IMG/VR virus record: IMGVR_UViG_3300023174_000228
Coordinates: 1 to 52,514 of that record
DNA length: 52,514 nucleotides
Direction: 5' to 3' (one strand)
Origin: a virus
Taxonomy: Duplodnaviria; Caudoviricetes
The position numbers and the translations under genes were made by a program. Each line of letters starts with the position of its first letter. Position 1 is the first letter of the stretch. The notes under the pieces are model-generated. The model was not told the origin of the DNA. It ran no database searches and was given only the letters and a program-made list of their open reading frames with translations. Of this stretch, positions 9,138 through 43,588 are shown one piece after another.

Positions 9138-9963
9138 TAATCGGTGGGATCTTTTTGAGTTCACTTTAAGAACAATTAAAAAAAGCAAATATACTGATTT
9201 TGAATTAATTGTTGTTGATGATTGTAGCTCTGAAGAGCATCGTCTTGAAGAAAAACTCAAACAATACGATTTCCCAATAACATTGGTTCGATTAGAAAAA
9301 GAAAATAAATTTTATACCAATCCGTGCATTCCATTCAACATAGGTTTTAGTTATGTCAAAGGAGACACAGTTTTAATTCAAAACCCTGAATGTTTTCATA
9401 TGGGTCAAGTTCTTCAAAAAGCTTCAACTATATCTGATAACGATTATTTGGTTTTTAGTTGCTATAACATAGACAAGCAGCTTTCTGAAAAAATAAGAAA
9501 TGAAAATGTAAAAGAAATTGATTTTTCAGTCATCAATCAGTCTATAAATCCAATAGTGAACCGTCCAGTTAGCCATTGCGAAGAAACCGCATGGTATAAT
9601 CATCCAATTTATAGGGACACAAAAATGCATTTTGCATGTGCCATAAAGAAAAAGGATTTGGATGATCTTGGAGGTTTTGATGAAAATTATAGTTTTGCTG
9701 TTGCCTATGATGATAATGATTTGGTGAAACGAATTTTAAATAAAAAAATGAATGTACAATACAGCAATGTTCCTATTGTAATACATCAATGGCATGGTTT
9801 GGGAAATTACACACAACATCACCCTATTCTTTCACAATTATTTCAGGATTTTAATCGTACATTATTTGAAAAATACACATGCAAAATAACAGATTATAGG
9901 GTTGAAAACACAAAAGGTCTAGGTAAGATGGTTCCTCGTAAAATAACCCATTACAATCAATGA
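9112..9963 (+). CDS. Glycosyltransferase family 2
   Basis: ELIVVDDCS, GGFDENY...YDDND. Confidence 0.9.
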   Translation: MVSIVTAYNNRWDLFEFTLRTIKKSKYTDFELIVVDDCSSEEHRLEEKLKQYDFPITLVRLEKENKFYTNPCIPFNIGFSYVKGDTVLIQNPECFHMGQVLQKASTISDNDYLVFSCYNIDKQLSEKIRNENVKEIDFSVINQSINPIVNRPVSHCEETAWYNHPIYRDTKMHFACAIKKKDLDDLGGFDENYSFAVAYDDNDLVKRILNKKMNVQYSNVPIVIHQWHGLGNYTQHHPILSQLFQDFNRTLFEKYTCKITDYRVENTKGLGKMVPRKITHYNQ

Positions 9964-11030
9964 AAAAAACATTTGTTACAGTGACAGGCATACGTCCGGA
10001 TTTTATCCGTATGTCGGAAATTTTTAAAAAGCTTGATGATAATTTCAATCATGTCATGGTTCATACCGGGCAGCATTTTGATACAATGCTTTCAGATGTT
10101 TTTTTTAATAATCTTTCTATTAGAAATCCAGATCATAATCTTCATGTTGGTGGAGAAGGTAAAGAACATTTTCACCAAACTGCAGAAGCTTCAGTAAAAC
10201 TTATTGAACTTTTGCGAACCTTAAAAAATGTTGATGGTGTTATCTTTTTAGGAGATTCCAATTCAGTTGCATCTTCAGTCGCAGTAAAAAAAGAAGGATA
10301 TTGTGTAATTCATATTGAAGCGGGAATGAGATCTGGAGACCGAAGAATGCTAGAGGAAATCAATCGGGTTGTTTGTGATAGTGTGTCTGATATTCTTTTC
10401 GTTTATCATGAAAACTATAAGCAAAAATTGTTAAAAGAAAATATTGATGCCCAAAACATTCATGTAGTGGGAAATACTATCGTTGAAGTTGTAAAACAAA
10501 AGAAGTTTGGACAAAGAACATATGAACATGTTTTGGTTGATATTCATCGTCCAGAAAATTTCTTATATAAAAACCGAATGCAGATTTTGTTGGACTATAT
10601 AAAACATTTCAAGAAGAATTATGGTTATACATTCTTATTTTTAAACTTTCCTAGAACAGTAAAAAAACTTGAAGAATATGGATTATATGAAGAATATAAA
10701 AAGAATTGCATATGCATACCTCTTCAAAGTTTTGACGAATATCTGAAATTATGCAATCGTTCTATTTTTATCATAAGCGATTCAGGAACAGCCCAAGAAG
10801 AACCTGCATTATTAAATGTTCCAGTGATTGTTCCTAGGGATTATACTGAACGACCCGAAAGCATACAAAATCATTGTTCGATTATGTTAAAAATAAATGA
10901 TCATGTTTGTCGTTATGAAATAGATAATATAAATAATTTTGTTAAAAAATTTGAAGAAAATAAAAATATTGACTGGTTGGGAAATGGAACTACATCTGAA
11001 AAAATAATCGAGGTATTAAAAAATATATGA
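9960..11030 (+). CDS. wecB: UDP-N-acetylglucosamine 2-epimerase
   Basis: GIRPDF, HTGQH, GDSNS, HIEAGMRS, EEINR, SDSGTAQEE, TERPE. Confidence 0.93.
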   Translation: MKKTFVTVTGIRPDFIRMSEIFKKLDDNFNHVMVHTGQHFDTMLSDVFFNNLSIRNPDHNLHVGGEGKEHFHQTAEASVKLIELLRTLKNVDGVIFLGDSNSVASSVAVKKEGYCVIHIEAGMRSGDRRMLEEINRVVCDSVSDILFVYHENYKQKLLKENIDAQNIHVVGNTIVEVVKQKKFGQRTYEHVLVDIHRPENFLYKNRMQILLDYIKHFKKNYGYTFLFLNFPRTVKKLEEYGLYEEYKKNCICIPLQSFDEYLKLCNRSIFIISDSGTAQEEPALLNVPVIVPRDYTERPESIQNHCSIMLKINDHVCRYEIDNINNFVKKFEENKNIDWLGNGTTSEKIIEVLKNI

Positions 11031-15005: not shown

Positions 15006-15977
15006 ATGAAAAAAGCATTTATTACAGGTATAAATGGACAAGATGGAAGCTATTTGACCGAACATCTGATTTCGTTAGGATATGAAATATATGGAATTGT
15101 GCGCAGAAATTCTATGCCTGAACATCAACAAACAAGATTGGATTCAGTAAGAGATAAAATACATGTGCATTATGGTGATTTGTTGGATCAAGGAGTAATG
15201 GAAAGGTTGTTGCGGGAAATACAACCAGATGAAATTTATAACCTAGCCGCCCAATCTCATGTCAGAATAAGTTTTGATATTCCACAATTTACAGTACAAA
15301 CAAATGCATTAGGTGTTATTAATATATTGGAAGCATATAAACATGCATGCCCAAATGCTAAATTGTATCAAGCAAGTAGTTCAGAAATGTTTGGTTTATC
15401 CGTAGAAGAAGATGGTTCTCAAAAGGAAACAACAGTTATGAACCCTGTTAGTCCTTATGGTTGTTCAAAGGTATTTGGATACAATATAGTTCGTAATTAT
15501 AGAAGAGCATATAAATTATTTGCGAGTAATGGTATTTTATTTAATCACGAATCACCAAGACGTGGCAGTAACTTTGTAACAAACAAAGTGGTTAAAACAG
15601 CAATAGAAATTAAATTAGGTATGAAAGACAAATTAGTGATGGGTAATTTGGACTCTAAAAGGGATTGGGGTCATTCAAAAGATTATGTACGGGCAATGCA
15701 TTTAATATTGCAACATAATAAACCTGATGATTGGGTAGTGGCAACAGGCGAAACACGTTCTGTTAGAGATATGTGTAACTATGTTTTTGATAAATTACAA
15801 TTAAATTACAAAGATTATATTGTGCAAGATCCGAAATTTTTAAGACCTGAAGAATTGCCCTACCTAAGAGGTGATTGTACAAAAATTACAACCGAATTAG
15901 GGTGGAAACCTGATTATACGTTTGAGCAATTAATGGATGAGATGATTGAATATTGGCTAAATTTTTATAAAAAATGA
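15006..15977 (+). CDS. gmd: GDP-mannose 4,6-dehydratase
   Basis: ITGINGQDGSYL, YNLAAQSHV, SPYGCSK, FNHESPRRG, RDWGH. Confidence 0.96.
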   Translation: MKKAFITGINGQDGSYLTEHLISLGYEIYGIVRRNSMPEHQQTRLDSVRDKIHVHYGDLLDQGVMERLLREIQPDEIYNLAAQSHVRISFDIPQFTVQTNALGVINILEAYKHACPNAKLYQASSSEMFGLSVEEDGSQKETTVMNPVSPYGCSKVFGYNIVRNYRRAYKLFASNGILFNHESPRRGSNFVTNKVVKTAIEIKLGMKDKLVMGNLDSKRDWGHSKDYVRAMHLILQHNKPDDWVVATGETRSVRDMCNYVFDKLQLNYKDYIVQDPKFLRPEELPYLRGDCTKITTELGWKPDYTFEQLMDEMIEYWLNFYKK

Positions 15978-17774: not shown

Positions 17775-17827
17775 AAAAATTATCGTAAAATTTGACAATT
17801 TTTTACTAATTGATATATAAGGTTAAT

Positions 17828-18793
17828 ATGGATAAAATACTAATTATTGGTGGATCAGGATATATTGGAGGTTATTTGACTGATCTTATAACGAAGTCAC
17901 CAACAACAAAAAATTATAATCTGTTAAAGCCTGCAGTTTTAGACAATTTGATTTATGAAGATCGTTTCTTAAAACAAGTGGATTTTTATAATATTGATGT
18001 TCGAGATGTAAAGGAATTGGATAAGGTAATTCATAATTATAAAGTTGTTGTTATGCTTGCAGCATTGGTTGGAGATCCTGCATGTGCTGTAGACAAACAA
18101 TTATCTTATGATATTAACGTTACTCCTGTTAAATGGATAACAGACAATTATAAGGGGAAAATAATTTTCACTTCAACATGTTCAGTTTATGGAAAAAATG
18201 ACGATCTTATTGATGAAAATGCAACACCAAATCCTCTTTCCATTTATGCTGAAACAAAACTTGAAGCAGAACAGTATCTTTTCTCAAAGAGACCTGATAG
18301 CTTAATTTTCAGATTAGGTACACTTTATGGGTTGGGAGATAGTCATAGTCGGCTACGTTTGGATCTGGTCGTAAATGTATTAACACTCAAGGCATCTTTG
18401 GGTGAGACATTAAAGGTATTTGGTGGAGAACAATGGCGACCTCTTTTGCATGTAAAGGATGTGGCAAATGCAACATTGTTTGGAATTTCAAATAATATTT
18501 CAGGAATCTATAATCTTTCTGAAAGAAATGCAACAATGCGTGACATCGCTGAAACCATAAAAGAAGAAATTCCATCTGCAAAGATTGAATATAGCGAAAT
18601 ACCATTTGAAGATCTTAGGAATTATAAGGTCAAAAATGAAAAGATCATGAAAACAGGATGGAACCCTCAATATTCATTGGTTTCTGGGATAAAAGAAATG
18701 AACGATGTTTTTAAACAAAAACGTGTTAAACAAGTAATGGATGATGTTTATCACAACGGAAATTATATAAGGAGACTTTATGGAAAAAAATGA
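17828..18793 (+). CDS. NAD-dependent nucleotide-sugar epimerase/dehydratase (extended SDR)
   Basis: GGSGYIG, TSTCSVYG, YAETK, GGEQWRP. Confidence 0.9.
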   Translation: MDKILIIGGSGYIGGYLTDLITKSPTTKNYNLLKPAVLDNLIYEDRFLKQVDFYNIDVRDVKELDKVIHNYKVVVMLAALVGDPACAVDKQLSYDINVTPVKWITDNYKGKIIFTSTCSVYGKNDDLIDENATPNPLSIYAETKLEAEQYLFSKRPDSLIFRLGTLYGLGDSHSRLRLDLVVNVLTLKASLGETLKVFGGEQWRPLLHVKDVANATLFGISNNISGIYNLSERNATMRDIAETIKEEIPSAKIEYSEIPFEDLRNYKVKNEKIMKTGWNPQYSLVSGIKEMNDVFKQKRVKQVMDDVYHNGNYIRRLYGKK

Positions 18794-20856: not shown

Positions 20857-20874
20857 TTGTGATAAGATTTGTAT

Positions 20875-21867
20875 ATGAATAAAGCCATAGGGTTTGAAGA
20901 TGTTGTATTGATTCCAAAATATAGTGAATTGGAATCCCGAAAAGGTGCAGATACAAAGGTTTGTATTGGAAATAATGTTTTTAAGTTGCCAGTAACTCCT
21001 TCAAATATGGTTTGCACGATAAACGATGAGTTGGGAAAATTTTTATCTGAAAACATGTATTTTTATGTAATGCATCGGTTTGGTGACACTTTAAATTTTG
21101 TTAAAAAAGCAAACGAAGAAAATTGGAAATTCATTTCAATTTCTGTTGGTGTAAGAGAAAAATGCGACAAAATAGTTGATCAATTAAAAGAACAAAACCT
21201 TAAAGTTGATTGTATTCTTATTGATGTTGCACATGGTCATCATTTTCTTGTAAAAGAAGCTATAAGAAAGATTAAAAAATATTTTCCTGACACTCTTGTT
21301 ATTGCTGGAAATGTTACCACCAAACAAGGAACACAGGACTTAAAGGACTGGGGTGCAGATATGGTCAAGGTGGCAATAGGCACAGGCAAGGCATGTATAA
21401 CCAAAGACAAGACAGGATTTACACTTCCAGTGTTTACATGTATTCAGGAGTGTGCAGAAGTGGATGTGCCTATAATGGCAGATGGAGGCGTTCGTTGTCA
21501 TGGAGACATTGCCAAGAGCATTGTTGCAGGTTCCACCATCAATATGGTTGGAAGTATGTTTGCAGCATGCACAGATAGCCCTGCAGATAGAATTATAGAA
21601 TATCCTGTAACAGATTCAAAAAGTGACCTGGAGTTCAAAAAACCAAAATTATATAAAAAATATTTTGGATCTGCTAGTTATGAACATAAGATCATAAACA
21701 ATCTTTCTGTTGAAAATATTGAAGGGACAACTGTTTTAGTTGAAGAAAATGGAAAAACATATTTGCAAATGCTTTTAGAAATAGAACAGGACTTGCAGAG
21801 TAGCATTTCTTATTCGGGAGGATATAATATTACTGATCTATCCCATACAAATTATAGAATCATATGA
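20875..21867 (+). CDS. guaC: GMP reductase (short GuaC type)
   Basis: FEDVVLIP, YVMHRF, IDVAHGH, GTGKACITKDKTGF, ADGG, YFGSAS, LQSSISYSGG. Confidence 0.9.
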   Translation: MNKAIGFEDVVLIPKYSELESRKGADTKVCIGNNVFKLPVTPSNMVCTINDELGKFLSENMYFYVMHRFGDTLNFVKKANEENWKFISISVGVREKCDKIVDQLKEQNLKVDCILIDVAHGHHFLVKEAIRKIKKYFPDTLVIAGNVTTKQGTQDLKDWGADMVKVAIGTGKACITKDKTGFTLPVFTCIQECAEVDVPIMADGGVRCHGDIAKSIVAGSTINMVGSMFAACTDSPADRIIEYPVTDSKSDLEFKKPKLYKKYFGSASYEHKIINNLSVENIEGTTVLVEENGKTYLQMLLEIEQDLQSSISYSGGYNITDLSHTNYRII

Positions 21868-23972: not shown

Positions 23973-24791
23973 ATGCTGCAACAATCGTATCATTTTGAAA
24001 TAAAGGATCTTATAGCATCTTTCATAGATGCTTTTGACGGAACAGTTATACGTCGATTCAACAAAAATAGAGATGCTGAAAGCCAAATAAAGGTTCGTTA
24101 CCTTTATGCACCAAAACAACGGGTTCTTTTTGATATTGTAACCCCCGGTCAAAATCTTACTCTTCCTGTTGTTGCCATAACCATTACAGGATTGAATAGG
24201 GACGAAAATCGAGTTTTTAATAAAATTGCAGGATTCTATGTGAATCAAGCAACTCGAATAGAAGACTCTTCTGCCCAAACATCATATTTCCGAACACCTA
24301 CACCTGTTGATATAGGAATCAACATGAGCATATTGACCCGATATCAAACTGATATGGATCAGATTCTGAGCAATTTCATTCCTTTCAATAATCCTTATAT
24401 TATTATTTCCTGGCAAATTCCAACAGCATATAATCTGGCAGTTCCTCAAGAAATAAGAAGCGAAGTGCTTTGGAACGGAACGGTTAATCTGAATTATCCA
24501 GTAGATCAGGATCCAAATAATAAATCTCTTATTGTGGCAGATACCAGTTTCACAATAAAAGGTTGGATATTTCCTGCTGAAAGCCCAGATGTTAAAAATA
24601 TATTTTATATTAATACAGATCTTAATGCAGCTGGTCCAGGTGTTTCATTGAATTACGACAATTATGCTAATCTTCAAGCTCAATCATATACAAGCAATTC
24701 TCCGAATAGTGCATTTCAAAATACAGATACAATTTCCATCAGTGCAAATCCTCAATTTGTTGGTCCGTCCGAATTACAGGTGGAGGTATAA
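23973..24791 (+). CDS. gp15: Tail sheath stabilizer/completion protein (T4 gp15-like)
   Basis: YHFEIK.LI..F...F, YAPKQR, TLP, D.DQI...F.PF.NP, F.IKGW.F. Confidence 0.85.
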   Translation: MLQQSYHFEIKDLIASFIDAFDGTVIRRFNKNRDAESQIKVRYLYAPKQRVLFDIVTPGQNLTLPVVAITITGLNRDENRVFNKIAGFYVNQATRIEDSSAQTSYFRTPTPVDIGINMSILTRYQTDMDQILSNFIPFNNPYIIISWQIPTAYNLAVPQEIRSEVLWNGTVNLNYPVDQDPNNKSLIVADTSFTIKGWIFPAESPDVKNIFYINTDLNAAGPGVSLNYDNYANLQAQSYTSNSPNSAFQNTDTISISANPQFVGPSELQVEV

Positions 24792-25244: not shown

Positions 25245-25252
25245 TATAAATA
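25245..25252 (+). promoter_or_regulatory. T4-type late promoter
   Basis: TATAAATA 6 nt before the portal ATG. Confidence 0.85.
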
Positions 25253-25258
25253 AATAGT

Positions 25259-27061
25259 ATGGCTCAAGCTGATTATTCCTCTACAAATGACCGAGGATCC
25301 AATACTTTCGGAAGAAGTTTACAAAAGTTTATTAGTGAACGTCTTCCATACAACAACTTTGCAGTTGTTGATGTTCTATCTCAGCTAAATCCAAAATTTT
25401 CACTTTTCCAGGATACAGGAAGTCGTAGAACTGAAGCGATTGCAAAACATAGTATAAGCAGCAGCACAGGAATTAATGAAACCAATATAGGTGCGATTGC
25501 CAGTGACAATAGCGTTACCAATTATCTTTATGCAAACATACAAGCTGATAAAGCTGCTCGTATTCGTGATTATCGAACCATGGCTGCTTTTTCAGAAGTA
25601 GCAGATGCTTTGGATGAAATATGTGATGAAGTTGTGAATGTGGACGAAGAAGGTAAAATTGTAAAAATTCGTTTTCATGATGATGATTTGTCAGATATTC
25701 AAAAAGAAGAATTGCAAAAAGAGTTTCATCGTTACATTAATCTTTTTGAATTAGAAAATCGTGGTTGGGAATATTTTAGGCATATGCTTGTGGATGCTGA
25801 AATTTATTTCGAGCATATCATTCATAGAGATTATCCACAGGAAGGTATTTTAGGAGTTGTTAGCATTCCTCCAGAATTGGTCGATCCTGTTTTTGGAAAT
25901 GTTCAGAATTTGATGGTCAAAGGTTTTGTTTTAAGAAAACCACTTTTTGACAAAACCAATCCAACAAAGGTAGTGGACTATCAAATTGTTCCATTGGATA
26001 AAAATCAGGTTACTTATATTAATAGCGGAATATGGAATGAAAATAAAACAGTTCGTCTTCCTTTCCTTGAAAATGCCCGCCGTGCCTATCGTCAACTTTC
26101 TCTTATTGAAGATAGTATTGTAATTTATCGTCTTGTTCGTGCCCCAGAAAAATTGGTTTTCAAAGTAGACGTGGGAAATATGAGTCCGGCCAAAGCCGAG
26201 GGTTATATGCGCCGTCTCATGAGCCAATATTGGAGTCGTAAAACATTTGATAATAATCAGGATGCGACTGTTCAAAAGTTCAACCCACAAAGCATGTTGG
26301 ACAGTTTTTGGTTTGCTAAACGTACAGGTCAGGATGGAACCACTGTGGAACAACTTCAAGGAGGTGCAAATCTTGGAGAATTGACAGATTTGATGTATTT
26401 CATGAAGAAGTTGTATCGGAGTTTAAAGGTACCTTCTTCTCGTCTTAATCCTGAAGACACATATAAAGATGGAACAGAAATTCTTCGGGAAGAATTAAAG
26501 TTTTCAAAATTTATTATTCGGCAACAACAAAGATTTGCTGAAGGTCTTAAGAATGGATTTATAACAAATCTCAAACTTAAGAAAATGTGGTCTGAATATG
26601 GATTAAAAGAAAATCATTTTGATTTGGCATTTAATGTACCAAGCAATTTCTATGAAATGCGTGAATTGCAAAAAATGCAGATGCGCACAGAAGGATTCAA
26701 CAATATTACTAATAATGAAAGCATCAGCAAGATTTATATGCAAAAGAAGATTCTGGGATGGACAGATCGTATGGTATTGGCAAACCGTGAATTCCTTCGT
26801 AAAGATGCTGAAATGAAATGGGAATTGGATCAGATTTCAGGAGCCGGTCCGGATTGGCGTAAGCAATTTGAAGGTGGCGAGAAAACTCCAAAAGCTGGTG
26901 GGGGTGGAGAAACTCCTCCTGAATTCGGACCTTCTCCGGGTGGAGGAACAACTGCACCTACTGGTGGAGCTGCAGCTGAAGAAACCCCAGAAATACCTGA
27001 AGTCCCTGAAGGAGGTGAAACACCTGAAGCTGAAACACCTGAAACTCCTGAAGCGACTTAA
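25259..27061 (+). CDS. gp20: Portal protein (T4 gp20 family)
   Basis: YRTMA..EV..ALDEI, QLSLIEDSIVIYRLVRAPE, DVGNM...KAE, LYRSLKVPSSR, REELKF. Confidence 0.97.
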   Translation: MAQADYSSTNDRGSNTFGRSLQKFISERLPYNNFAVVDVLSQLNPKFSLFQDTGSRRTEAIAKHSISSSTGINETNIGAIASDNSVTNYLYANIQADKAARIRDYRTMAAFSEVADALDEICDEVVNVDEEGKIVKIRFHDDDLSDIQKEELQKEFHRYINLFELENRGWEYFRHMLVDAEIYFEHIIHRDYPQEGILGVVSIPPELVDPVFGNVQNLMVKGFVLRKPLFDKTNPTKVVDYQIVPLDKNQVTYINSGIWNENKTVRLPFLENARRAYRQLSLIEDSIVIYRLVRAPEKLVFKVDVGNMSPAKAEGYMRRLMSQYWSRKTFDNNQDATVQKFNPQSMLDSFWFAKRTGQDGTTVEQLQGGANLGELTDLMYFMKKLYRSLKVPSSRLNPEDTYKDGTEILREELKFSKFIIRQQQRFAEGLKNGFITNLKLKKMWSEYGLKENHFDLAFNVPSNFYEMRELQKMQMRTEGFNNITNNESISKIYMQKKILGWTDRMVLANREFLRKDAEMKWELDQISGAGPDWRKQFEGGEKTPKAGGGGETPPEFGPSPGGGTTAPTGGAAAEETPEIPEVPEGGETPEAETPETPEAT

Positions 27062-27075
27062 AGATAAATAATATT

Positions 27076-28161
27076 ATGTCAATTGTAAGCAAACAGGTAC
27101 TATATGATTCATTTTCAGCAGGTCATACACCTTCTTCTAATGATTTTAGAAATTTAATTGATACCACATACGGCTTTCCGCTAACTGCTATAAACTACAC
27201 AACTGGTTTGACCATCAGCCAAGGTTCTACTGGACTGCCTGTTTTGATCAATGGAACGACTTATTATATTCCTTTGTTTAACACCACTACAACAGCACCA
27301 ACGACTGCTGACCAAACTGCATATACAAATACTGTAAGAATTACATATCCTAATGCTGTTTTGGCTGAAACATTTGGAAGCAGATGTGCTACTTACATTC
27401 AAACACTTTGTGGATATACTCCAGATGATGTTGTCACAGCAGCTTGTATTTGTTCTGATGATAAAAATGCACCTATTTTCCCGAACAATACATTTGGTCA
27501 ATATCCACAATCTCTGCAACAATTCAGTGGTCCATTCTTTGCTGGAGGAATTGGTGGATATCCTTTCCCTGGAATCGTTGGTCTTTTTGCTTGGATGAGT
27601 CACGTAACAGAAACTGGTGCATTATTCATATATGTGCATCCTCACATTGGAATTACCAAGAGTGGTCAAGTTGGATTCATGAAACGCAGAGGTCAAGGTG
27701 GAAATCTAAGTCAAACATGTGGAGCTGTAAACGCTGCCCAAGCCCGAATCGTTGGTCCTTTGAGTGCAACAGCACCAACATTTCCAAGTGCAGAATTTAC
27801 AGTTAATGATTATCAACAATATACACTCGTTAATGCACTTTGGAGCAATACTACCGTAAGAAATGCACTTACAGCAGCTTCTCCTGTTCAAGGCGGAACA
27901 TATGCTCAAAGAATGAAGATAGCTACAGATGCAATTCTTAATGCTGCATTAAGTGCAGTTGAAACAATATTGCCAATTTCATATAATGCATTCTTTCAAG
28001 GTGAAAATAGTAAAGATGTTTTTGTGCATGCTGGCACATTCATCAATGTGGATGATGGATATAGCGCTTATGTGGACACGATTGCATTTAAAAAATACAA
28101 TCCTGTAACACAAACATTTACAACTCTTACTAGTCCCTTTACAGCAACTTTTGGATTATAA
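27076..28161 (+). CDS. LCIB/theta-class carbonic-anhydrase-like domain fused to a virion-type N-terminus
   Basis: CSDD...GPF..GG.GG.PF.G..G..A..SH...PHIGI...G.VG...R.GQ...TCGA...DYQQ; Cys/His/Cys zinc ligands present. Confidence 0.8.
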   Translation: MSIVSKQVLYDSFSAGHTPSSNDFRNLIDTTYGFPLTAINYTTGLTISQGSTGLPVLINGTTYYIPLFNTTTTAPTTADQTAYTNTVRITYPNAVLAETFGSRCATYIQTLCGYTPDDVVTAACICSDDKNAPIFPNNTFGQYPQSLQQFSGPFFAGGIGGYPFPGIVGLFAWMSHVTETGALFIYVHPHIGITKSGQVGFMKRRGQGGNLSQTCGAVNAAQARIVGPLSATAPTFPSAEFTVNDYQQYTLVNALWSNTTVRNALTAASPVQGGTYAQRMKIATDAILNAALSAVETILPISYNAFFQGENSKDVFVHAGTFINVDDGYSAYVDTIAFKKYNPVTQTFTTLTSPFTATFGL

Positions 28162-28164
28162 TTT

Positions 28165-28365
28165 ATGCCAACAAATATTGCCACAGCAGTAATCAATGCG
28201 ATTACTGCAATTTTCGGTGCAATCAATAATGTATTTGGAGCAAAGAACACACCTGAAATGAAAGATCGTCAGGAAAAACAAAAAGAAGTGGATTATACAA
28301 GCAAGGCAGAACAAGCTGTAAAGGAGAAAGATGTTAAAAAGATTCGCGATATTCTCGCTGAGTAG
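28165..28365 (+). CDS. Small protein with hydrophobic N-terminus and helical tail (i-spanin candidate)
   Basis: Overlaps the downstream lipoprotein gene by 35 nt. Confidence 0.5.
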   Translation: MPTNIATAVINAITAIFGAINNVFGAKNTPEMKDRQEKQKEVDYTSKAEQAVKEKDVKKIRDILAE

Positions 28366-28750
28366 TTTATTGATTGCAGGATGTACCACAGTTACACCTG
28401 ATAAAATCAAAGACGAAGTATCCAGTTATGATGCCAGCACACCCACAGGGTATGATGTGCAGAATAGCGGTTTTATAGGGTTTACTGATGATGGTAAAGG
28501 TCTAATAACAGCGTTTGGTGTTTTAAGGTACAATACCCTTGTAAAAGCATATAAGATCAAATTTAAAGGTTATAAGGGGGTAGAACTTAATGAAAATGAC
28601 GGGATAACTGAATATGCAGATAAACTGGGAAATAAACTTTATATTATTGATCAACAGCATCTTGTTTATTATGCCATTCTTAACAGTTGGCGTAAAGAAG
28701 GTAAGCCTACCGATAGCATTGTGGATAAGGTAATAGACAAAGTTAATTAA
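28331..28750 (+). CDS. Lipoprotein (o-spanin candidate)
   Basis: Signal peptide with lipobox LIAG/C. Confidence 0.7.
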   Translation: MLKRFAIFSLSSLLIAGCTTVTPDKIKDEVSSYDASTPTGYDVQNSGFIGFTDDGKGLITAFGVLRYNTLVKAYKIKFKGYKGVELNENDGITEYADKLGNKLYIIDQQHLVYYAILNSWRKEGKPTDSIVDKVIDKVN

Positions 28751-30739: not shown

Positions 30740-31639
30740 TTAATTTATATTAATAAAAGCTTTGTCTTTCATTTTAAATTCAAAATCAATATCAATATCA
30801 TCCAGTCCGTAGGTATCAGGAAGTTGTTTTACATAATCAGCATGAGCCCGAGGATTTTTGCCTTCCCTGCTTTCGCTATAATGAAATAATGGACGATAAC
30901 TCCTCCAACTGTCCCTGCACAAACTAAATGCATCTTTTTCAATCATGTCATCCGGATGACATTTGTGATGCAAATAGTCAAACGTAATAGGTATCAAAGA
31001 TATTGGATAAAGATGACGGGTAAGTTTGCGTACACTCCAGCATTTGCCTTTATCATCATTTTCCACAACCAATCGTTTGCGAGCATCCAAAGTTAATAAA
31101 CCAAGATTGTCCACAAACCGTCTGGCAATATCATCAAAGTTGCCTCTGCTGTTGTTGATGTGAATGTTGATAGGACTGTTGTAATCCAATGGACAACCCA
31201 GCTGAGTAAGAAACCAACCAGTGAAGTTCAGTTCATTAATGGTGCGATTCAATGCATCTTTGTTCTCTGTGGCTAATACATTAAACTCACTGGGATGGGA
31301 TGATAAGCGCACAGGATGATCTTGGATATAATTTCGGATGAGCAAAATGGTATCAGTTATTTGTTTGCAATTGGGCAGATCTTCTAGTTTTACTTTTGCT
31401 TTGTCATATGTGATGAGCGGAAACAAATCACTGCTCAGACGATAATTGTAATTGTTTTCATAACAGAATTTGATGGCTTCACCTGTCACCATCATATTGT
31501 TAAGAATGCGATTACCCAGATCTTGCAAACCATCTTTGCGGTTCATGTTGCTGAACTTTTTATAAGTCATGGTTTTGAACTTTTTAGGTTCAACCATATC
31601 CTGCAAGCTGAGAACAATGCAACAAATGCCTCGACGCAT
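30740..31639 (-). CDS. uvsE: UV damage endonuclease
   Basis: YRLSSDLFP, RLSSHPSEF.VL, INIH, RLVVENDD, FDYLHH, HYSES, AHADY. Confidence 0.92.
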   Translation of the reverse strand: MRRGICCIVLSLQDMVEPKKFKTMTYKKFSNMNRKDGLQDLGNRILNNMMVTGEAIKFCYENNYNYRLSSDLFPLITYDKAKVKLEDLPNCKQITDTILLIRNYIQDHPVRLSSHPSEFNVLATENKDALNRTINELNFTGWFLTQLGCPLDYNSPINIHINNSRGNFDDIARRFVDNLGLLTLDARKRLVVENDDKGKCWSVRKLTRHLYPISLIPITFDYLHHKCHPDDMIEKDAFSLCRDSWRSYRPLFHYSESREGKNPRAHADYVKQLPDTYGLDDIDIDFEFKMKDKAFININ

Positions 31640-32034: not shown

Positions 32035-32646
32035 ATGACCGAAGGAAAGAAATATACCATTTCCATCATTAATGGATCTCTTGGAGGTCGCACCGGAAAC
32101 ACTCATAATCTCATAAAGAAATTACGTAAAACCATTAATAAAATCGATCCAGAAATAAAAGTACGGGTTATTCATCTCACACCCAGTTTTAATTGGCTCC
32201 TTGTGAGAAAATACATAAGAACCAGTGATGCTTTTGTTTTTTGCACAGGAACATATTGGCAAAGCTGGGGAAGCCCCATGCAACATCTTTTTGAAAAAAT
32301 GACAGAACTTGAAGGAAAGAAACATCTTTTGGGTAAACCTGTTGGAGCAATTTCAACTATGCATTCAGTTGGAGGGCAGGAAGTTGTTAGTCGAATGCAA
32401 GGTGTTCTTTGCAGTTTGGGTTGCGTAATTCCTCCTTTCTGTGGTTTTGCATACAGTTATGCAGATCATGTGGCTCATCGTAGCCGATATCATGGGAAAA
32501 AACTGATGGATGATGTATGGCATTTGGAAGATATTTGTGCATTAATTAATAATGTTATTGAAAGTATGAAAGGAACGAATAAATGGAAAGTATGGGATTT
32601 CCTAGATACACAAGCTTTTGATCCAACAAGCATATGGCTAAAATGA
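32035..32646 (+). CDS. NAD(P)H-dependent FMN reductase / flavodoxin family
   Basis: INGSL...GNT, TGTYW, GKP, HSVGGQ. Confidence 0.85.
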   Translation: MTEGKKYTISIINGSLGGRTGNTHNLIKKLRKTINKIDPEIKVRVIHLTPSFNWLLVRKYIRTSDAFVFCTGTYWQSWGSPMQHLFEKMTELEGKKHLLGKPVGAISTMHSVGGQEVVSRMQGVLCSLGCVIPPFCGFAYSYADHVAHRSRYHGKKLMDDVWHLEDICALINNVIESMKGTNKWKVWDFLDTQAFDPTSIWLK

Positions 32647-33635
32647 CATTTATTGTAACAGGAGGAGCAGGATTCATTGGCCGACATCTGGTCAAGAATC
32701 TGCGCAACAGGTATCCAGATTCTAATATTATTGTTTTGGACAAGCTTGGAATAGGATCCGACAAAAAAAGTCTTAGATCCTATGATGTTGAATTTATTGA
32801 ACTTGACCTATCTGACAGGAAATGGTTGGGTGTATTTTGCACCACCGTATCTGAACCGGTGGATTGTGTGTTTCATCTTGCAGCGGAAAGTCATGTGGAT
32901 CGAAGCATCACTTCTCCCAATGGTTTTGTGGATTCAAATGTAACAGGTACATTCAATATTCTTTTTGGTCTTCAAAACAAATATAAAAAGTTTATGCATG
33001 TCAGCACTGATGAGGTTTACGGATCGTTGAATATTGATTCAGATCCAAGCAAGGAAACAGACCATCTCAAACCTAGTAGCATATACAGCTCGACGAAGGC
33101 AAGTTCAGATCTTATTGTTCTGGCTTCTTATCACACCAACAAATTTCCAGTGATAGTTACTCGGTGTTGCAACAACTATGGACCTGGACAACATGCTGAA
33201 AAATTCATACCGGTTGTTTTAAACAATGCTTTGAATGACAGAAACATACCGGTTTATGGTAATGGAATGAATGTGAGAGAATGGATATATGTGGATGATC
33301 ATGCCAATGCCATTATTGATCTCAGTGAAAAGGGTGAAATTGGAGAAATATATAATATTGGTTCTGCCTACAGATTAGATAACATTTCTTTGGCCAAACA
33401 TATTTTAAAAATATTAAAAAAACCAGAAAGTCTTATCAGTTTTGTAACTGATCGTCTTGGACATGATATTTGTTATAAACTAGATAGCGCAAAAACAAGA
33501 AGCACAATTAATTTGCCAAAATATGACGAACAAAGATTTTTACAATTTTTGAAACAAACAGTTGAAAAACATATTTTATCTGTAAATAAACAAAAAGGAG
33601 AAATACCATGGGAATGTTTGATAACATCAAAGTAG
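32634..33635 (+). CDS. rmlB: dTDP-glucose 4,6-dehydratase
   Basis: TGGAGFIG, HLAAESHVDRSI, STDEVYG, YSSTK, NNYGP.Q..EKFIP, DRLGHD. Confidence 0.93.
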   Translation: MAKMTFIVTGGAGFIGRHLVKNLRNRYPDSNIIVLDKLGIGSDKKSLRSYDVEFIELDLSDRKWLGVFCTTVSEPVDCVFHLAAESHVDRSITSPNGFVDSNVTGTFNILFGLQNKYKKFMHVSTDEVYGSLNIDSDPSKETDHLKPSSIYSSTKASSDLIVLASYHTNKFPVIVTRCCNNYGPGQHAEKFIPVVLNNALNDRNIPVYGNGMNVREWIYVDDHANAIIDLSEKGEIGEIYNIGSAYRLDNISLAKHILKILKKPESLISFVTDRLGHDICYKLDSAKTRSTINLPKYDEQRFLQFLKQTVEKHILSVNKQKGEIPWECLITSK

Positions 33636-35888: not shown

Positions 35889-36110
35889 ATGAAGTTTACA
35901 ACAGAACAACTTTGGACATTATATTTTGGATTAGGTATTGCCCAAGCATGGCAAGATCAAAAAATTGAAAAGGATGAAGGTAGTTGCATACCCAAGAGTT
36001 ATCTATGTGATGTACAGGTAATAATTCTTGATGAAATTAATCGCAGACAAAACAAATCAAATTTTTTCAGGATCCGCCGAATAATGAATCTTCTTAATTT
36101 CTTTAGATAA
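35889..36110 (+). CDS. Hypothetical protein
   Basis: Preceded by TTGACA-N15-TACCCT-N6; overlaps the purA 3' end. Confidence 0.55.
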   Translation: MKFTTEQLWTLYFGLGIAQAWQDQKIEKDEGSCIPKSYLCDVQVIILDEINRRQNKSNFFRIRRIMNLLNFFR

Positions 36111-37040
36111 GTTTTCTTGGAAAAATTGAACCATCTTTTCTTTGTTTTCAAATTCAATCACTGTGTGGTTATGAATTATTTTATATAATCCTGTTTTATC
36201 CAATACATCCCATTTGTTGCTGTAAATGATATCACATCCTGATTTCTCAATAGCATAGTTCAGAAGAGTTAGATTTAACCAATTCACTTTGCGTTTACGG
36301 TTTGTGGTGGTTCCATATTCATGGCCCAGTTCAATTATTTTTGCGAATACAGGATCTTTGACTGAGTCTTCTGGAAATCTTGGATCCAATCCACTCTTTG
36401 TGTCATATGCCTTGCAAACTCCAATAATATCCCGGATTTTACGAGGAGAGAATCCAAGACTGCAAGCAGCATAAGGAAGAGTTTCACTGCTTGTCACATA
36501 AGGATAAACGCCAAAGTTGATATCCAACCAGAACGATTGGGCACCTTCACAAAGAACATTTCCTTTCAATTCACCATCCCAAATATATTTTGCATCAATT
36601 GCATCTTTAGCAAGAGTTCCACAACGAAGCATTTTGTCTGAATAACAAGGAGCAATTCCTTTTCCTGTCGTTCCCAACTTCTCCTTTAAATGTTTGTTGT
36701 CATATTCAATATGCTTGTCTGTGATAACGTGTGCATTTGGAGCTATCTTAATAAGATGAGTATCCACTCCTACACTTTTAAGATATTCTATTTCTTTATA
36801 AAATGATTCAGGATGCACAATACAATTGGGTCCGATAATGCATTTCTTTTCATTAAAAATACCAGAAGGAACCAGATGTGTTTTATACATTTTACCATTT
36901 TTGTAAATGGTGTGACCTGCATTACTTCCTCCATTCCATCTGCACACATAATCATAATTCTTTGAGAGATTATACGTTATCTTTCCTTTACCTTCATCTC
37001 CCCAGCACAGTCCAAATATGATGTCTACGTGTTTAATCAT
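36057..37040 (-). CDS. purA: Adenylosuccinate synthetase (short form)
   Basis: WGDEGKGK, GGSNAGHT, GTTGKGI.P.Y.DK, EGAQ, YPYVTSS, EYGTTTNRKR, NKWD. Confidence 0.93.
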   Translation of the reverse strand: MIKHVDIIFGLCWGDEGKGKITYNLSKNYDYVCRWNGGSNAGHTIYKNGKMYKTHLVPSGIFNEKKCIIGPNCIVHPESFYKEIEYLKSVGVDTHLIKIAPNAHVITDKHIEYDNKHLKEKLGTTGKGIAPCYSDKMLRCGTLAKDAIDAKYIWDGELKGNVLCEGAQSFWLDINFGVYPYVTSSETLPYAACSLGFSPRKIRDIIGVCKAYDTKSGLDPRFPEDSVKDPVFAKIIELGHEYGTTTNRKRKVNWLNLTLLNYAIEKSGCDIIYSNKWDVLDKTGLYKIIHNHTVIEFENKEKMVQFFQENLSKEIKKIHYSADPEKI

Positions 37041-40525: not shown

Positions 40526-43500
40526 ATGCAGAATCCTTTAGAGAATTTCCTGTTGAATCTGGCTGAAAAGATTCAAACTGAAAAGGAATATAAAGAGATT
40601 GTAAAAAATTCAGAAAGCGTTGATGTTAATAAAGATGTGTTCGCTGGCTTTATTGAAGGAATAGCCAACACAATAAAAGAAAATGTAAAGAATGAACCAA
40701 CTGAAGAAAAGCCTTCTGAACCAGATCCCTTGGAAAATTTCCTTTCAACTTTGGGTGAAAAATTAAAGAACCTGCCTGAAAAGAAAAAAGAGGAAGAAAC
40801 AATAAAACAAGAAGAACCTGTTAAAGAAAATCAACCAGTAAAACAAAAAGAACCAGTTGAAGAACCAAAACCAGTTGAAACCAAACCTGAAAACGAACCA
40901 ATCAAATCAGAAGAAAATGAAACACCAGATGCATTTGCAGGATTTGTAAACAATCTTGCAAACATATTAAAGAAAACACCTGAACAAAAAATAGAACAAC
41001 CTGTTGAAAATGAAAAACCAAAAGAACAAGTTAATGATTATGTAAAAGTATTATCCAATAACAAAAAGGTTAAAACACCTGAAATCAAGAATGTTGAAAA
41101 GAAACCAGAAGAAAATGAAGAAACACCAGACATCAAGAAATTTGTGGCAAATTTTGTTACAAAAGAATTGGAGTCATTTAAAAATGATCTGACCGAAAAG
41201 TATCTGAAGAAAGCAGCAGTACTGAGTGAATATGCCGGAGGAGGTGGAACCAATGCTGTTCAATATGCAAATGGAGGGGTCATGAATGGTGACCTGAATG
41301 TTAATGGTCACATACTCTCTGGTGGTAGAGATATATCTAATTTCTTTGGAAATGGTGGAGGGGGCGGTACTCAAACTCTTTCATTCAATCCAAGTAATGC
41401 AGATCTTTCTATCAGTGGTGGAAATACAGTTAGTTTATCTGCATTAAGTGGAGGTGGAGGTAGTCCTACAGATAGATTAGTTAGCGGGTCTTTCTTGGTG
41501 GTACTGAGTAGTGATGGTACCACAACTATTCCTGGTTTATTAACAGTACCTAATTTATCAGGAGGAGCTATTCTTACTGCTGCAGGTTATGATGATATCG
41601 AAGGTTTTTATGGCCAATCAAATATTCCAGTTATTCAAAATGGTATAAATGGTACCATTGATATAAGCAATGTTGGCGTAGTAACTGTGTCAAATTCAGG
41701 CGAAAATTATACAAATGGCATAGCTATTATAGGAGGCGGTACAAGAATTATAATTTCAGTAACTTCACCCGGATGGGTGTATAATTCTAATGGTTCTATT
41801 ACATTTCCAAATGGCTCCACACAAACAACAGCATTTACAGGCAATCCAGATTCAAGTAAATGGGATAGTAATTATACCACAACAAATTCAAATAGTGCTA
41901 GTTGGTCTAGTGTTTATACAAATGTAAATTCAAACAGCTCTAATTATGCTCTTACAAATACTAATGTAATTTTTCAAAACAACGTAACTGTATTGGGTAA
42001 TTTAACTGCTAAAGGAACAGCTACATTTGCCAACACAATATTCACCACAACTAGTGCATTAAGCGTCGTTAATACAGGACCGGGACCTGCGTTATATGTG
42101 TTTCAAGCAGCAGGTCCTTATGATGTGGCTAGTTTTTATGATGGAGATGGAATTGAAGTGTTGCATGTGGGCAATGCTAATCCAGGTGGCAAAGGATTTG
42201 TTGGTATTAATGAAAGTTTTCCTGGTACTGAACTTACAGTTAATGGTGCTATTAGCAGTAATAGAACTATTACAGTTCTAGGTGGCAACAGCAATCAATG
42301 GAACAGCAATTATACCACTTCCAATACTAATAGTGCAAGATGGGAATCTGCCTACACTTCTTTTAATGCTAATTCCGGTAAATACGATTCTAACTACACT
42401 ACAACTAATTCGAACAGTGCTAATTGGTCTCAAGCTTATACCAATTTAACATCCAATTCGGCTGCTTATCTTTCTGGTGTAAATATTAGTTTACTAGCTA
42501 CTACTTCAGCATCATGGAATAGTGTTTATAGTACAACACAGAACAATAGTGCCATATGGTCTTCTGTATATACTTCATTCAATACTAACTCTGCAAAATA
42601 CGATTCTAATTATACCACAGTAAATTCTAATAGTGCCAATTGGAATTCAGGTTACAATGCATATACTCAATTAAACAGTATTAGTGCTTCTATTATTGTT
42701 GATGGCGGTAATACTCGTGCTTCTGATATTAATATTGGAACTAATGATAATTATAACTTATTTCTAGAAACAAACAATTCAAAAAATGTTGTTATAACAC
42801 GCACAGGCAATGTAGGTATAGGTACGCCAGTCACAACAATAGCATCAAATCAAGATTTAATCGGATATAATTTCTTCTCTTTAATTAACAGTTTAGCTTC
42901 TACAGCTTCCCCAGGGTTAGCTGCTAGTACTATTGCTGCAGGCTTAATGACTAGAGCAGCAGGTATTAATGGATTTGCATCTATAGCAGGTTGGGGATCA
43001 CAAGGCTATAGTACGGGATCCGTTGATATAGCATCAGCAATTACAAACACAGAGTACTATACAATTCCAATATACTCAACACAAAATACCACTATAATAT
43101 TAAAATCATTAAATGCATTTTTTGTAGATAGATCTCCATCTGGTCCAACAAATATGGGATTTCTTTATGGTACCTCTAGCAATCCTTTACTCGCTAATGC
43201 TCTTGCTATTACCCCGCTTCCTGCAACTCCTACCAATATTAATACAGGTATTAATCAAGCTTTGACTGCAAACCCTATAACAATTACCCCAGGCACAACT
43301 GGCTACATGTTCCTGGTACCATATGGAGCTACAGCAGGAGGTGGGCGATTGATATTTCAAAGCACTTACCCTGCAGGAAATGCAAATGATTTAAGCTTTA
43401 TAGGCACAATAACAGATGAACCATATAATAAACTCATAGTTGCGGGTACACTATCAGCAAATATAATAGATATCAACATGTTAAAAGCTCAATCAACTGT

Positions 43501-43588
43501 GCCTGTTGCAGGTACCAGAACATTAACATCATTATTTTTATCTATAACTGTAGGAACTAGTAGTTTGTATATTCCGCTATATAAATAA
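40526..43588 (+). CDS. Large fibre-like virion protein
   Basis: Charged N-terminal ~235 aa, Gly-rich linkers, W/Y 14-aa repeats, GNVGIGT motifs; TAAATA-N5-ATG. Confidence 0.8.
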   Translation: MQNPLENFLLNLAEKIQTEKEYKEIVKNSESVDVNKDVFAGFIEGIANTIKENVKNEPTEEKPSEPDPLENFLSTLGEKLKNLPEKKKEEETIKQEEPVKENQPVKQKEPVEEPKPVETKPENEPIKSEENETPDAFAGFVNNLANILKKTPEQKIEQPVENEKPKEQVNDYVKVLSNNKKVKTPEIKNVEKKPEENEETPDIKKFVANFVTKELESFKNDLTEKYLKKAAVLSEYAGGGGTNAVQYANGGVMNGDLNVNGHILSGGRDISNFFGNGGGGGTQTLSFNPSNADLSISGGNTVSLSALSGGGGSPTDRLVSGSFLVVLSSDGTTTIPGLLTVPNLSGGAILTAAGYDDIEGFYGQSNIPVIQNGINGTIDISNVGVVTVSNSGENYTNGIAIIGGGTRIIISVTSPGWVYNSNGSITFPNGSTQTTAFTGNPDSSKWDSNYTTTNSNSASWSSVYTNVNSNSSNYALTNTNVIFQNNVTVLGNLTAKGTATFANTIFTTTSALSVVNTGPGPALYVFQAAGPYDVASFYDGDGIEVLHVGNANPGGKGFVGINESFPGTELTVNGAISSNRTITVLGGNSNQWNSNYTTSNTNSARWESAYTSFNANSGKYDSNYTTTNSNSANWSQAYTNLTSNSAAYLSGVNISLLATTSASWNSVYSTTQNNSAIWSSVYTSFNTNSAKYDSNYTTVNSNSANWNSGYNAYTQLNSISASIIVDGGNTRASDINIGTNDNYNLFLETNNSKNVVITRTGNVGIGTPVTTIASNQDLIGYNFFSLINSLASTASPGLAASTIAAGLMTRAAGINGFASIAGWGSQGYSTGSVDIASAITNTEYYTIPIYSTQNTTIILKSLNAFFVDRSPSGPTNMGFLYGTSSNPLLANALAITPLPATPTNINTGINQALTANPITITPGTTGYMFLVPYGATAGGGRLIFQSTYPAGNANDLSFIGTITDEPYNKLIVAGTLSANIIDINMLKAQSTVPVAGTRTLTSLFLSITVGTSSLYIPLYK

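Follow-up and report, generated by a model that had tools for sequence, protein, structure and literature searches.

Modular tail fibres and tailspikes of phages consist of a conserved N-terminal anchor and an exchangeable C-terminal receptor-binding or enzymatic domain. To our knowledge, all enzymes described on virions to date target surface polymers of the host or its cell wall, by cleavage or deacetylation. The known members of the LCIB family of carbonic anhydrases (CAs) either function in the chloroplasts of algae or are cytoplasmic proteins of bacteria, uncharacterised and about 248 amino acids (aa) long. Virus-encoded α-, β-, and γ-CAs are reported as auxiliary genes in the accessible part of a preprint (10.64898/2026.01.21.700432), and in the part of the literature that was surveyed neither a phage with an LCIB-type CA nor a CA carried on virions is described. 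Here we analyse a gene (27076..28161, + strand, stop codon included) in a 52,514-nt stretch of DNA from an uncultured virus, a T4-like phage of fresh water (IMG/VR record IMGVR_UViG_3300023174_000228; hereafter, the window), a 52.5-kb fragment estimated to cover 25% of one genome. The gene encodes a 361-aa fusion of an N-terminal module (N-module), a Thr-rich linker, and an LCIB-type CA domain. Because the LCIB domain is fused behind a module that heads tail-fibre proteins elsewhere, the enzyme is probably on the particle, a mode of carriage undescribed for this enzyme class.

The domain is a genuine LCIB/theta-type β-carbonic anhydrase (residues 80–361; 27313..28158, +). The Pfam model LCIB_C_CA (PF18599) matches residues 112–332 with 91.2 bits (cut-off 25; E 7.5e-26), and PF18599 is annotated in all 52 relatives in a precomputed table. 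Searching the PDB with a profile of 23 relatives finds 6kfs (E 8.4e-26) and PtLCIB4 (5b5y; E 4.6e-23), and also LCIC (5b5x) and LCIB (5k5w). The AlphaFold2 model has a mean predicted local distance difference test (pLDDT) score of 76.5, with blocks of the CA domain mostly at 78–96 and residues 1–80 at 44–57. All eight Foldseek matches of this model with E ≤ 1e-3 are LCIB-family chains. For 5b5y_A (PtLCIB4) E is 2.5e-13 and the TM-score on the target 0.79; 6kfs reaches a TM-score of 0.80, LCIB and LCIC are also matched, and no classical β-CA does better than E 7e-3. An LCIB-like fold is absent from BFVD, where matches to giant-virus CAs are weak (E 0.015). The initial annotation had called an LCIB-type domain from motifs and proposed a Pfam profile search and AlphaFold with Foldseek as checks; both bear it out.

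The LCIB motifs are all present, as had been listed: CSDD (126–129), GPF..GG.GG.PF.G (152–166), PHIGI (189–193), CGA (215–217), and DYQQ (245–248). All 23 aligned relatives keep residues C126, D128, D129, Q142, H176, H190, R204, and C215 without exception. Specifically, C126 (codon 27451..27453), H190 (27643..27645), and C215 (27718..27720; all +) align with CSDE, H(V)G, and CCG of PtLCIB4 and 6kfs, and from knowledge of the LCIB family we take these three residues to be the zinc ligands. H176 and R204 align with GH and RRG of PtLCIB4. The accessible part of a review names His162 and Arg194 of CrLCIB as important for active-site integrity (PMC5876011); by alignment, these probably correspond to H176 and R204 of the window protein.

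At least 123 contigs of one viral collection encode a relative, and the best 80 of the 123 were studied, with ORFs (open reading frames) in these loci called by a simple longest-ORF rule. On the cellular side, the best 80 of 438 matches were taken, of which 79 entered the tree; they are mostly from Bacteroidota and share 28–38% identity with the viral domain. Thirty-two positions are conserved to at least 90% in both the 66 distinct viral and the 79 cellular sequences compared, including C126, D128, D129, H176, H190, R204, and C215. The sole position fixed differently is T178, which is Pro in the cellular set. The ratio of nonsynonymous to synonymous substitution rates (dN/dS) is 0.06–0.08 over residues 85–361, with synonymous sites near saturation; purifying selection on the family is strong. 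Since the fold, the zinc ligands, and the active-site residues are conserved and dN/dS is low, the catalytic apparatus appears intact as far as sequence can show.

Residues 1–69 (27076..27282, +) form a separate module, of the kind that heads phage tail-fibre proteins elsewhere. The module comprises the motif L..SF..G..P...DF.NLID followed by a β-hairpin ending in YYIPLF. A profile of residues 1–72 from nine close relatives, searched against 1.84 billion representative proteins, gave 46 matches with E ≤ 1e-3 in proteins of 45–700 aa. In 39 of the 46 the best-matching stretch begins at residue 1–14; in some the motif is an internal repeat. Nineteen matches in total were inspected (18 fetched, 14 scanned, one unfetched), and nine of these have collagen repeats, tail-fibre PHROGs, or a Peptidase_S74 domain. 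The collagen triple-helix proteins among the matches also have numerous PHROG tail-fibre matches, and one match carries Peptidase_S74, the chaperone domain of endosialidase-type fibres.

A described phage protein begins in the same way. A tblastn search with the stand-alone form of the module (see below) hits residues 5–86 of gp046, a 635-aa 'structural protein' of Flavobacterium phage vB_FspM_lotta8-2 (MN812204). The first 70 residues of gp046 hold the motif L..FF..GD.P....F..LID and then a hairpin ending in FLPVF, and its gene occupies a tail-fibre position at the end of the tail module, ahead of an amidase. The initial annotation had likened the N-terminus to a fibre-protein motif; the collagen-like tail-fibre heads and gp046 substantiate that likeness beyond what its author could draw on.

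Residues 1–69 vary between clades of relatives. With a dN/dS of 0.10–0.31, the N-module is under purifying selection. Cellular homologs were named at the outset as the place where the same N-terminus would speak against a virion role; none of the 79 (median 248 aa) carries the module, and there are no matches among the 488 ORFs of their 80 loci. The Thr-rich linker, another element of the initial annotation, is residues 70–79 (TTTTAPTTAD; 27283..27312, +), with pLDDT below 50 at residues 66–76. A further proposed resemblance, between VLINGTTYYIPLF in the N-module and the C-terminus of a 1020-aa T/S/G-rich, fibre-like ORF of the window (40526..43588, +; …SSLYIPLYK), has held only in part. Both strings exist, and the likeness between them is weak: the pattern Y[IVL]PL[FY], chosen post hoc, occurs twice in 311 window ORFs versus 0.144 times in shuffles (P 0.0105), and BLASTP of residues 1–90 against the 1020-aa ORF gives a best E of 0.18. 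This ORF has no PHROG match.

Structure prediction of three copies of residues 1–72 gave a complex score of 0.54 (three runs, 0.50–0.58), versus 0.01 for the best of three controls. Of 30 proteins solved as pairs, 20 came up to the mark set for this score, as did one of 23 solved as single chains; this calibration used two copies and its own alignments, and its counts are only approximate here. Partner pLDDT is at least 71 and at least 67% of the contacts agree between runs, from a 9-row alignment. The predicted interface takes in residues 61–69 of each copy. The prediction supports a fibre-like trimer.

The gene lies directly downstream of a gene for a T4-type portal protein, gp20 (600 aa; 25259..27061, +; PF07230, E 9.3e-105; phrog_213). 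The portal stop codon (27059–27061) is separated from the LCIB gene by a 14-nt gap. As regards the start of the gene, the coordinates first given to it, 27065–28161, are right at the 3' end; position 27065 falls in the intergenic gap, inside the octamer GATAAATA, and the ORF begins at 27076. Contigs from three further sequencing runs, belonging to three studies, span both the portal/gene junction and the N-module/CA junction, so the fusion is not an assembly artefact.

Eighty portal loci were fetched, of which 75 were new, and they define an exchange of cassettes behind the portal gene. In six loci, whose portals are 85–88% identical, the gene after the portal encodes a 95-aa protein with the same N-terminus (hidden Markov model E 5.5e-9 to 2.5e-12). 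This protein agrees with the LCIB protein over the first ~38 residues, and at its end (…TLNGSAVKIPFFN) there is a likeness to the hairpin …VLINGTTYYIPLFN. Forms of 91–94 aa follow the portal in five loci that are more distant (portals 60–62% identical); in L183, L205, and L223 such a form is followed by large ORFs of ~670 and ~410 aa, which we read as fibre-like. Among the 75 new portal loci, the short form is present in 11 and the LCIB form in seven. The short forms (91–95 aa) have no firm PHROG family, and the 95-aa protein retrieves from the ESM Atlas best scores of 0.87 or lower and no named family, which is a lead only.

The DNA of two of these loci marks the breakpoints. L168, with the LCIB gene, and L167, with the 95-aa gene, are 87% identical by blastn from upstream of the portal gene through codon 34, and then become unalignable. 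Homology returns at 90%, 9 nt past the stop codon in L168 and 27 nt past it in L167. These breakpoints indicate that the enzyme domain replaces the distal part of a small protein, with the first 34 codons kept. The corresponding conserved anchor in the window is 27076..27177 (+). A conserved head with an exchanged distal part is the pattern of receptor-binding-protein exchange in tail fibres.

The fused gene is also found outside this context. In a sister clade it is ~80% identical over its whole length and directly follows a T4-like major head protein gene; the two 82–85 kb records of this clade contain no T4-type portal. Linkage to the portal gene, to which the initial annotation had drawn attention, is therefore a property of the closest relatives (12 of the best 80 viral loci) and does not extend to this sister clade. 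The locus after the portal is an insertion hot spot. Relative to the window, additional genes amounting to ~8.7 kb separate the LCIB gene of L005 and L008 (11083–19801) from the conserved gene that comes next, an orf66 homolog.

In composition the window protein resembles the fibre-like proteins around it. T, S, A, G, and N make up 0.45 of its residues and K, R, E, and D 0.10; it has the sixth highest T+S+A+G+N of the 60 window ORFs of at least 100 aa and ranks with the fibre-like ORFs, consistent with the T/A/G-rich, virion-like composition first noted. The property belongs to the enzyme domain itself (K+R+E+D 0.10, T+S+A+G+N 0.43) and to the viral family. Specifically, K+R+E+D is 0.10 (0.07–0.17) in 83 viral ORFs versus 0.23 (0.19–0.26) in the 79 cellular proteins, and T+S+A+G+N is 0.44 (0.39–0.50) versus 0.31 (0.26–0.38), with disjoint ranges in both cases. 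A low-charge, T/S/A/G/N-rich make-up is usual in exposed fibre proteins and unusual in cytoplasmic enzymes.

The octamer GATAAATA (27063..27070, +), 5 nt 5' of the ATG, is an instance of the motif NATAAATA. This motif has 18 plus-strand sites in the window, nine of which lie within 40 nt 5' of one of 71 plus-strand ORF starts, where about one would be expected. It stands 5–6 nt before the ATG of the portal gene (25259), the LCIB gene, and the 1020-aa fibre-like ORF (40526). In all 15 relatives checked, which represent the 95-aa gene and both contexts of the LCIB gene, the ATAAATA core comes 4–9 nt ahead of the ATG. The initial annotation had assigned the gene its own late promoter; the motif is confirmed, and by analogy with T4-type phages it would be a late promoter. 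Sites at 25245, 27063, 35115, 40513, 45448, and 46064 are only 5–6 nt ahead of the start codon. Transcripts from a T4-type late promoter in this position would have almost no leader or none at all; alternatively, NATAAATA could be a translation-start context.

The relatives place the window gene in a wider viral family. In a quick FastTree phylogeny of the viral sequences and the best 79 cellular ones, one branch (support 100) sets all viral sequences apart. The viral proteins form an old, phage-specific clade. Portal adjacency aside, LCIB genes of this clade follow a T4-like major head protein, are flanked by a 539-aa major head protein and a virion structural protein or by an adaptor and a tail sheath, stand beside tail proteins, or form tandem pairs. 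An annotated morphogenesis family lies no more than three genes away in at least 41 of the 76 loci with a called LCIB ORF (50 neighbour proteins scanned in PHROGs). In L027–L033 and L036, the tandem pairs consist of LCIB-family genes of 361–406 aa and then 285–314 aa. L029 belongs to a record of 202,880 bp that has terminal repeats, and L032 to one of 217,413 bp; each is rated 100% complete.

Fusion to a shared N-terminus recurs in the family. Of the 76 LCIB ORFs with an N-terminal extension of at least 30 aa, 23 share it with the starts of non-LCIB ORFs of these loci. These shared extensions fall into five groups, whose N-termini are unrelated. In L023 the same ~35 starting residues are found on four proteins of 155–356 aa. 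The partners in L020, L024, and L026 are 219–847 aa long and include an RCC1 propeller and a part matching phrog_677 ('baseplate wedge tail fiber protein connector'). Other partners are a Fib_succ_major domain protein or a 67–127-aa protein encoded just upstream.

Two loci, L074 and L075, represent a second, independent N-terminal fusion. Their LCIB gene encodes 374 aa, versus 308 aa in L053–L055, L065, and L072. The first 61 residues of the longer form are 81–87% identical to the start of a 306–307-aa protein, which in the sister loci is encoded ahead of the LCIB gene and is missing from L074 and L075.

A different kind of anchor is seen in three clusters of 775–776-aa proteins (P0100–P0102; L241 and L242, 8001–10328). 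Here the LCIB domain (~residues 112–397) is inserted in-frame into a ~500-aa late protein, where it replaces an eight-residue loop and has one Cys on each flank. The ~500-aa host protein occurs in 266 viral stretches, from records of up to 326 kb, and in more than 3,141 protein clusters, and is 80–99% conserved. It and its two upstream neighbours have no firm match in the PDB, PHROGs, or the phage records. Specifically, the host protein has no Pfam match, PF04717 is absent from three of its records, and in the PDB it gives only short WD-40 repeat matches at query residues 216–258 (best E 1.9e-4); its AlphaFold2 pLDDT is 32.

On these grounds we consider the chances about even that the protein is a virion-displayed, catalytically relevant CA. 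The two components of this reading fare differently: display on the virion is likely, though well short of assured, and an enzyme so carried is probably active. We infer attachment to the virion, formation of a real trimer, enzymatic activity, and a benefit to infection as follows. Residues 1–69 would be a small trimerising anchor, like the tail-fibre heads elsewhere and as predicted for three copies; in sister phages the same anchor would start a stand-alone 95-aa 'mini-fibre' encoded right after the portal. The Thr-rich linker would join the anchor to the LCIB/theta-type CA domain with its kept zinc site. The protein would be made late, alongside the structural proteins, and mounted on the particle, perhaps in the neck/portal vicinity, which gene position alone suggests, with up to three CA domains exposed to water. 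During adsorption these domains would interconvert CO2 and bicarbonate plus a proton in the host surface layer. A CA placed there would speed CO2/bicarbonate/proton equilibration where a respiring cell keeps a disequilibrium; that it aids or cues adsorption is speculation.

Several observations weigh against display of an active enzyme. A CA merely speeds an equilibrium, and the benefit of a few enzyme copies per particle is not obvious. No family member is present in 50,697 phage records or in BFVD, so the family has no isolate. A second N-module ORF is absent from the window, from the ±10 kb flanks of the 80 loci, and from eight related records; a shared docking site thus rests on comparison between phages and not within one phage. 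The AlphaFold2 monomer is of low confidence over residues 1–80, and the trimer was predicted from an alignment of nine rows. In the wider family, 53 of 76 LCIB ORFs with an extension of at least 30 aa have no detectable partner, and many viral LCIB proteins have extensions of only 11–57 aa with no detectable partner and could be free proteins. Thirty-five of the 76 loci lack an annotated structural neighbour within three genes, and one LCIB group adjoins a glycosyltransferase and a carbamoyltransferase, which has a metabolic look. Finally, some LCIB-family proteins (CrLCIB, LCIC) are inactive as CA in vitro, according to the accessible part of the review (PMC5876011).

Among the alternatives, a late auxiliary metabolic enzyme acting inside the infected cell has to be weighed first. 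Such an enzyme would supply bicarbonate for carboxylations or carbamoyl-phosphate, or act on pH, and its N-terminal fusion would be an accident at an insertion-tolerant site. The auxiliary viral α-, β-, and γ-CAs of the preprint (10.64898/2026.01.21.700432, accessible part) offer a precedent, and the ~8.7 kb of extra genes in L005 and L008 fit a hot spot; the loci beside the carbamoyltransferase and glycosyltransferase, and the 35 without a structural neighbour, point the same way. An accidental fusion is difficult to reconcile with purifying selection on the N-module (dN/dS 0.10–0.31), with a fused gene that is intact in two genome contexts at ~80% identity, and with fusion to shared N-termini in at least five other clades. 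Moreover, the protein has half the charged residues of its cytoplasmic cellular homologs, with no overlap in range, and its gene is preceded by the motif found at late structural genes. The viral clade and the 79 best cellular relatives are parted by one branch, supported at 100, and identity to the best 80 of the 438 cellular matches is at most 38%; this argues that the gene is not recently host-derived. An auxiliary gene of host origin would be marked by host similarity, a cytoplasmic make-up, and lack of a virion module, and the window protein shows none of these marks. We therefore regard an intracellular auxiliary role for the window protein as unlikely.

The carbamoyltransferase group itself comprises L052, L056, L058, L061–L064, L067, L068, L070, and L073, in which genes for a Nol-like carbamoyltransferase (phrog_1601) and a glycosyltransferase (phrog_24687) lie close to the LCIB gene. 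In nine of these 11 loci the N-terminal extension matches a 127-aa protein, whose gene immediately precedes the LCIB gene in L062 and L063. Conceivably, bicarbonate is connected with carbamoyl-phosphate and the carbamoylation of glycans in this group.

A second alternative accepts the virion and sets aside the chemistry: the LCIB fold would be a binding or structural tip, for receptor binding or decoration, with the zinc site kept for stability. All evidence for display applies to it equally. In other clades the LCIB domain stands where paralogues have a binding domain, such as an RCC1 propeller, a Fib_succ_major domain, or a gp9/10-like connector part, and the in vitro inactivity of CrLCIB and LCIC reported in the accessible part of the review (PMC5876011) would agree with a non-enzymatic role. 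What distinguishes the two readings is conservation beyond the zinc ligands. None of the 23 relatives departs from D128, D129, Q142, H176, or R204, and all of these but Q142 are among the 32 positions conserved to at least 90% in both the viral and cellular sets. A changed function would predict drift in the active site, and only T178 versus Pro is fixed differently. A tip in which CA chemistry is irrelevant thus seems quite improbable.

It is very improbable that the protein is packaged in the head and injected with the DNA like the T4 internal proteins, which share a short N-terminal capsid-targeting sequence that the prohead protease removes, since the N-module is also the start of a protein in tail-fibre position and of collagen-like fibres as long as 700 aa, which are unlikely head cargo, and the low-charge composition is unlike that of a DNA-associated internal protein, even though T4 prohead-core genes lie after the portal gene, the LCIB gene directly follows the portal gene in the window, and several paralogues share an N-terminus as T4 internal proteins do. 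The tripeptide LAE after the linker was considered as a prohead-protease site and rejected, because it is part of the LCIB fold and aligns with the cellular and PDB sequences. The idea of a cyanophage whose cytosolic CA collapses the carbon-concentrating mechanism of its host was set aside, provisionally so for the window's own incomplete genome: five large carrier contigs, including two rated 100% complete, lack psbA, which makes such a shutdown unlikely, and the window portal is only ~33% identical to cyanophage portals.

A broader version of display of an active CA on the virion would extend it from the window to the family. Many uncultured freshwater phage lineages, from T4-like myoviruses to 326-kb jumbo phages, would carry active LCIB-type CAs on the outside of the virion by means of differing anchors, namely a mini-fibre by the portal, paralogous tail-fibre N-termini, and the loop of a conserved late protein. 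We regard this joint reading, anchors included, as tentative and somewhat doubtful.

The window portal is only ~33% identical to the nearest portals, from cyanophages, in the 50,697 phage records; in the same records the LCIB protein has no tblastn match and 20 kb of window DNA has no megablast match. The window stretch was detected in runs of nine studies, two of which are possible sources of the DNA, and the labelled samples are freshwater or lake water. One RNA run with window words gave a single perfect 162-nt contig, which lies inside the portal gene, and three pieces of 47–62 nt with 6–9 mismatching letters each; the LCIB gene is uncovered, and the run is uninformative on its expression either way. 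As a guess, the host belongs to Bacteroidota, judging from the nearest cellular homologs, the module shared with a Flavobacterium phage, the partner domains, and a G+C content of 28–39%.

Upstream of the portal gene, the window encodes a gp15-like tail sheath stabiliser (23973..24791, +; PF16724, E 1.6e-18; phrog_227). The portal protein ends in a ~70-aa low-complexity G/E/T/P/A-rich tail (26850–27058; …GGGETPPEFGPSPGGGTTAPTGGAAAEETPEIPEVPEGGETPEAETPETPEAT), and the Pfam portal domain stops at residue 511. Two genes downstream of the LCIB gene, a 139-aa ORF (28331–28750, +) has a lipoprotein-like signal at its start (…SSLLIAGCTT). Relatives with just 90% identity in the LCIB gene conserve this ORF at 99%, and L020, L024, and L026 have ~75% identical copies of it close to the LCIB gene and on the other strand. 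The window also encodes nucleotide-sugar enzymes, namely a UDP-GlcNAc 2-epimerase (9960–11030), a GDP-mannose 4,6-dehydratase-type protein (15006–15977), and further NAD-dependent epimerases/dehydratases (17810–18793 and 32634–33635). Together with the many T/S-rich fibre-like proteins, one idea is that they serve virion glycosylation. Purine-metabolism and repair genes share the fragment with the LCIB gene: an IMP dehydrogenase/GMP reductase-family protein (20869–21867, +), a 327-aa adenylosuccinate synthetase-like protein matched in two stretches (36057–37040, −), and a UvdE UV-endonuclease (30740–31639, −).

If a CA is indeed carried on the phage particle, it would add inorganic-carbon chemistry to the capabilities of virions. 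It would represent a new class of virion enzyme, one that acts on dissolved inorganic molecules (CO2, bicarbonate, protons) and not on a surface polymer. Such an enzyme might read or change the carbonate chemistry of the boundary layer or capsule of the host and thereby trigger or aid adsorption. It would also give the little-understood bacterial and viral branch of LCIB proteins a first functional context outside algal CO2-concentrating mechanisms. In addition, the swap behind a 34-codon anchor would provide a natural scaffold for the display of foreign domains on such phages.

The claim, made at the outset, that the protein is built like a virion protein is supported by a fibre-type N-module that is absent from cellular homologs, a swappable cassette by the portal gene, and a predicted trimer. 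As an enzyme, it shares with the LCIB/theta CAs (PtLCIB4, 5b5y; 6kfs; CrLCIB, 5k5w; LCIC, 5b5x) the fold, the motifs, the Cys-His-Cys ligands, and the Asp, His, and Arg residues. It differs from them in its low identity (15–20% to the solved structures and 28–38% to the best bacterial homologs), in a longer domain with a ~9-aa insert after CSDDxNxP, in having half the charged residues, and in the N-terminal virion-type modules of the viral proteins, which no cellular homolog bears. The α-, β-, and γ-CAs of the preprint (10.64898/2026.01.21.700432) are likewise encoded by viruses; they belong to other classes and are read as metabolic, and the accessible part of the preprint describes no virion module.

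As an appendage, the closest described protein is lotta8-2 gp046, which has the same starting module; unlike the window protein, it is 635 aa long, has no LCIB domain, and is encoded at the end of the tail module, with an annotation by similarity only. The protein would resemble the small neck or head appendages T4 fibritin with its C-terminal foldon hairpin, the phi29 head fibre, and T4 Hoc as a short, putatively trimeric appendage encoded beside portal or capsid genes, and the N-module has a β-hairpin with an N/D-G turn at the predicted three-fold contact. No sequence or fold match to these proteins was obtained, and they are without an enzyme of small-molecule metabolism. The protein has most in common with modular tail fibres: a kept N-terminus, a swap at sharp DNA breakpoints, paralogues with a common N-terminus within one phage, a predicted trimer, and a T/S/G/A/N-rich composition. 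It departs from them in a stalk of only ~70 aa, in a gene that lies in the head/neck region of the window, outside the tail-fibre genes, and in its cargo, which is an inorganic-carbon enzyme instead of a depolymerase, esterase, or lectin directed at a surface polymer.

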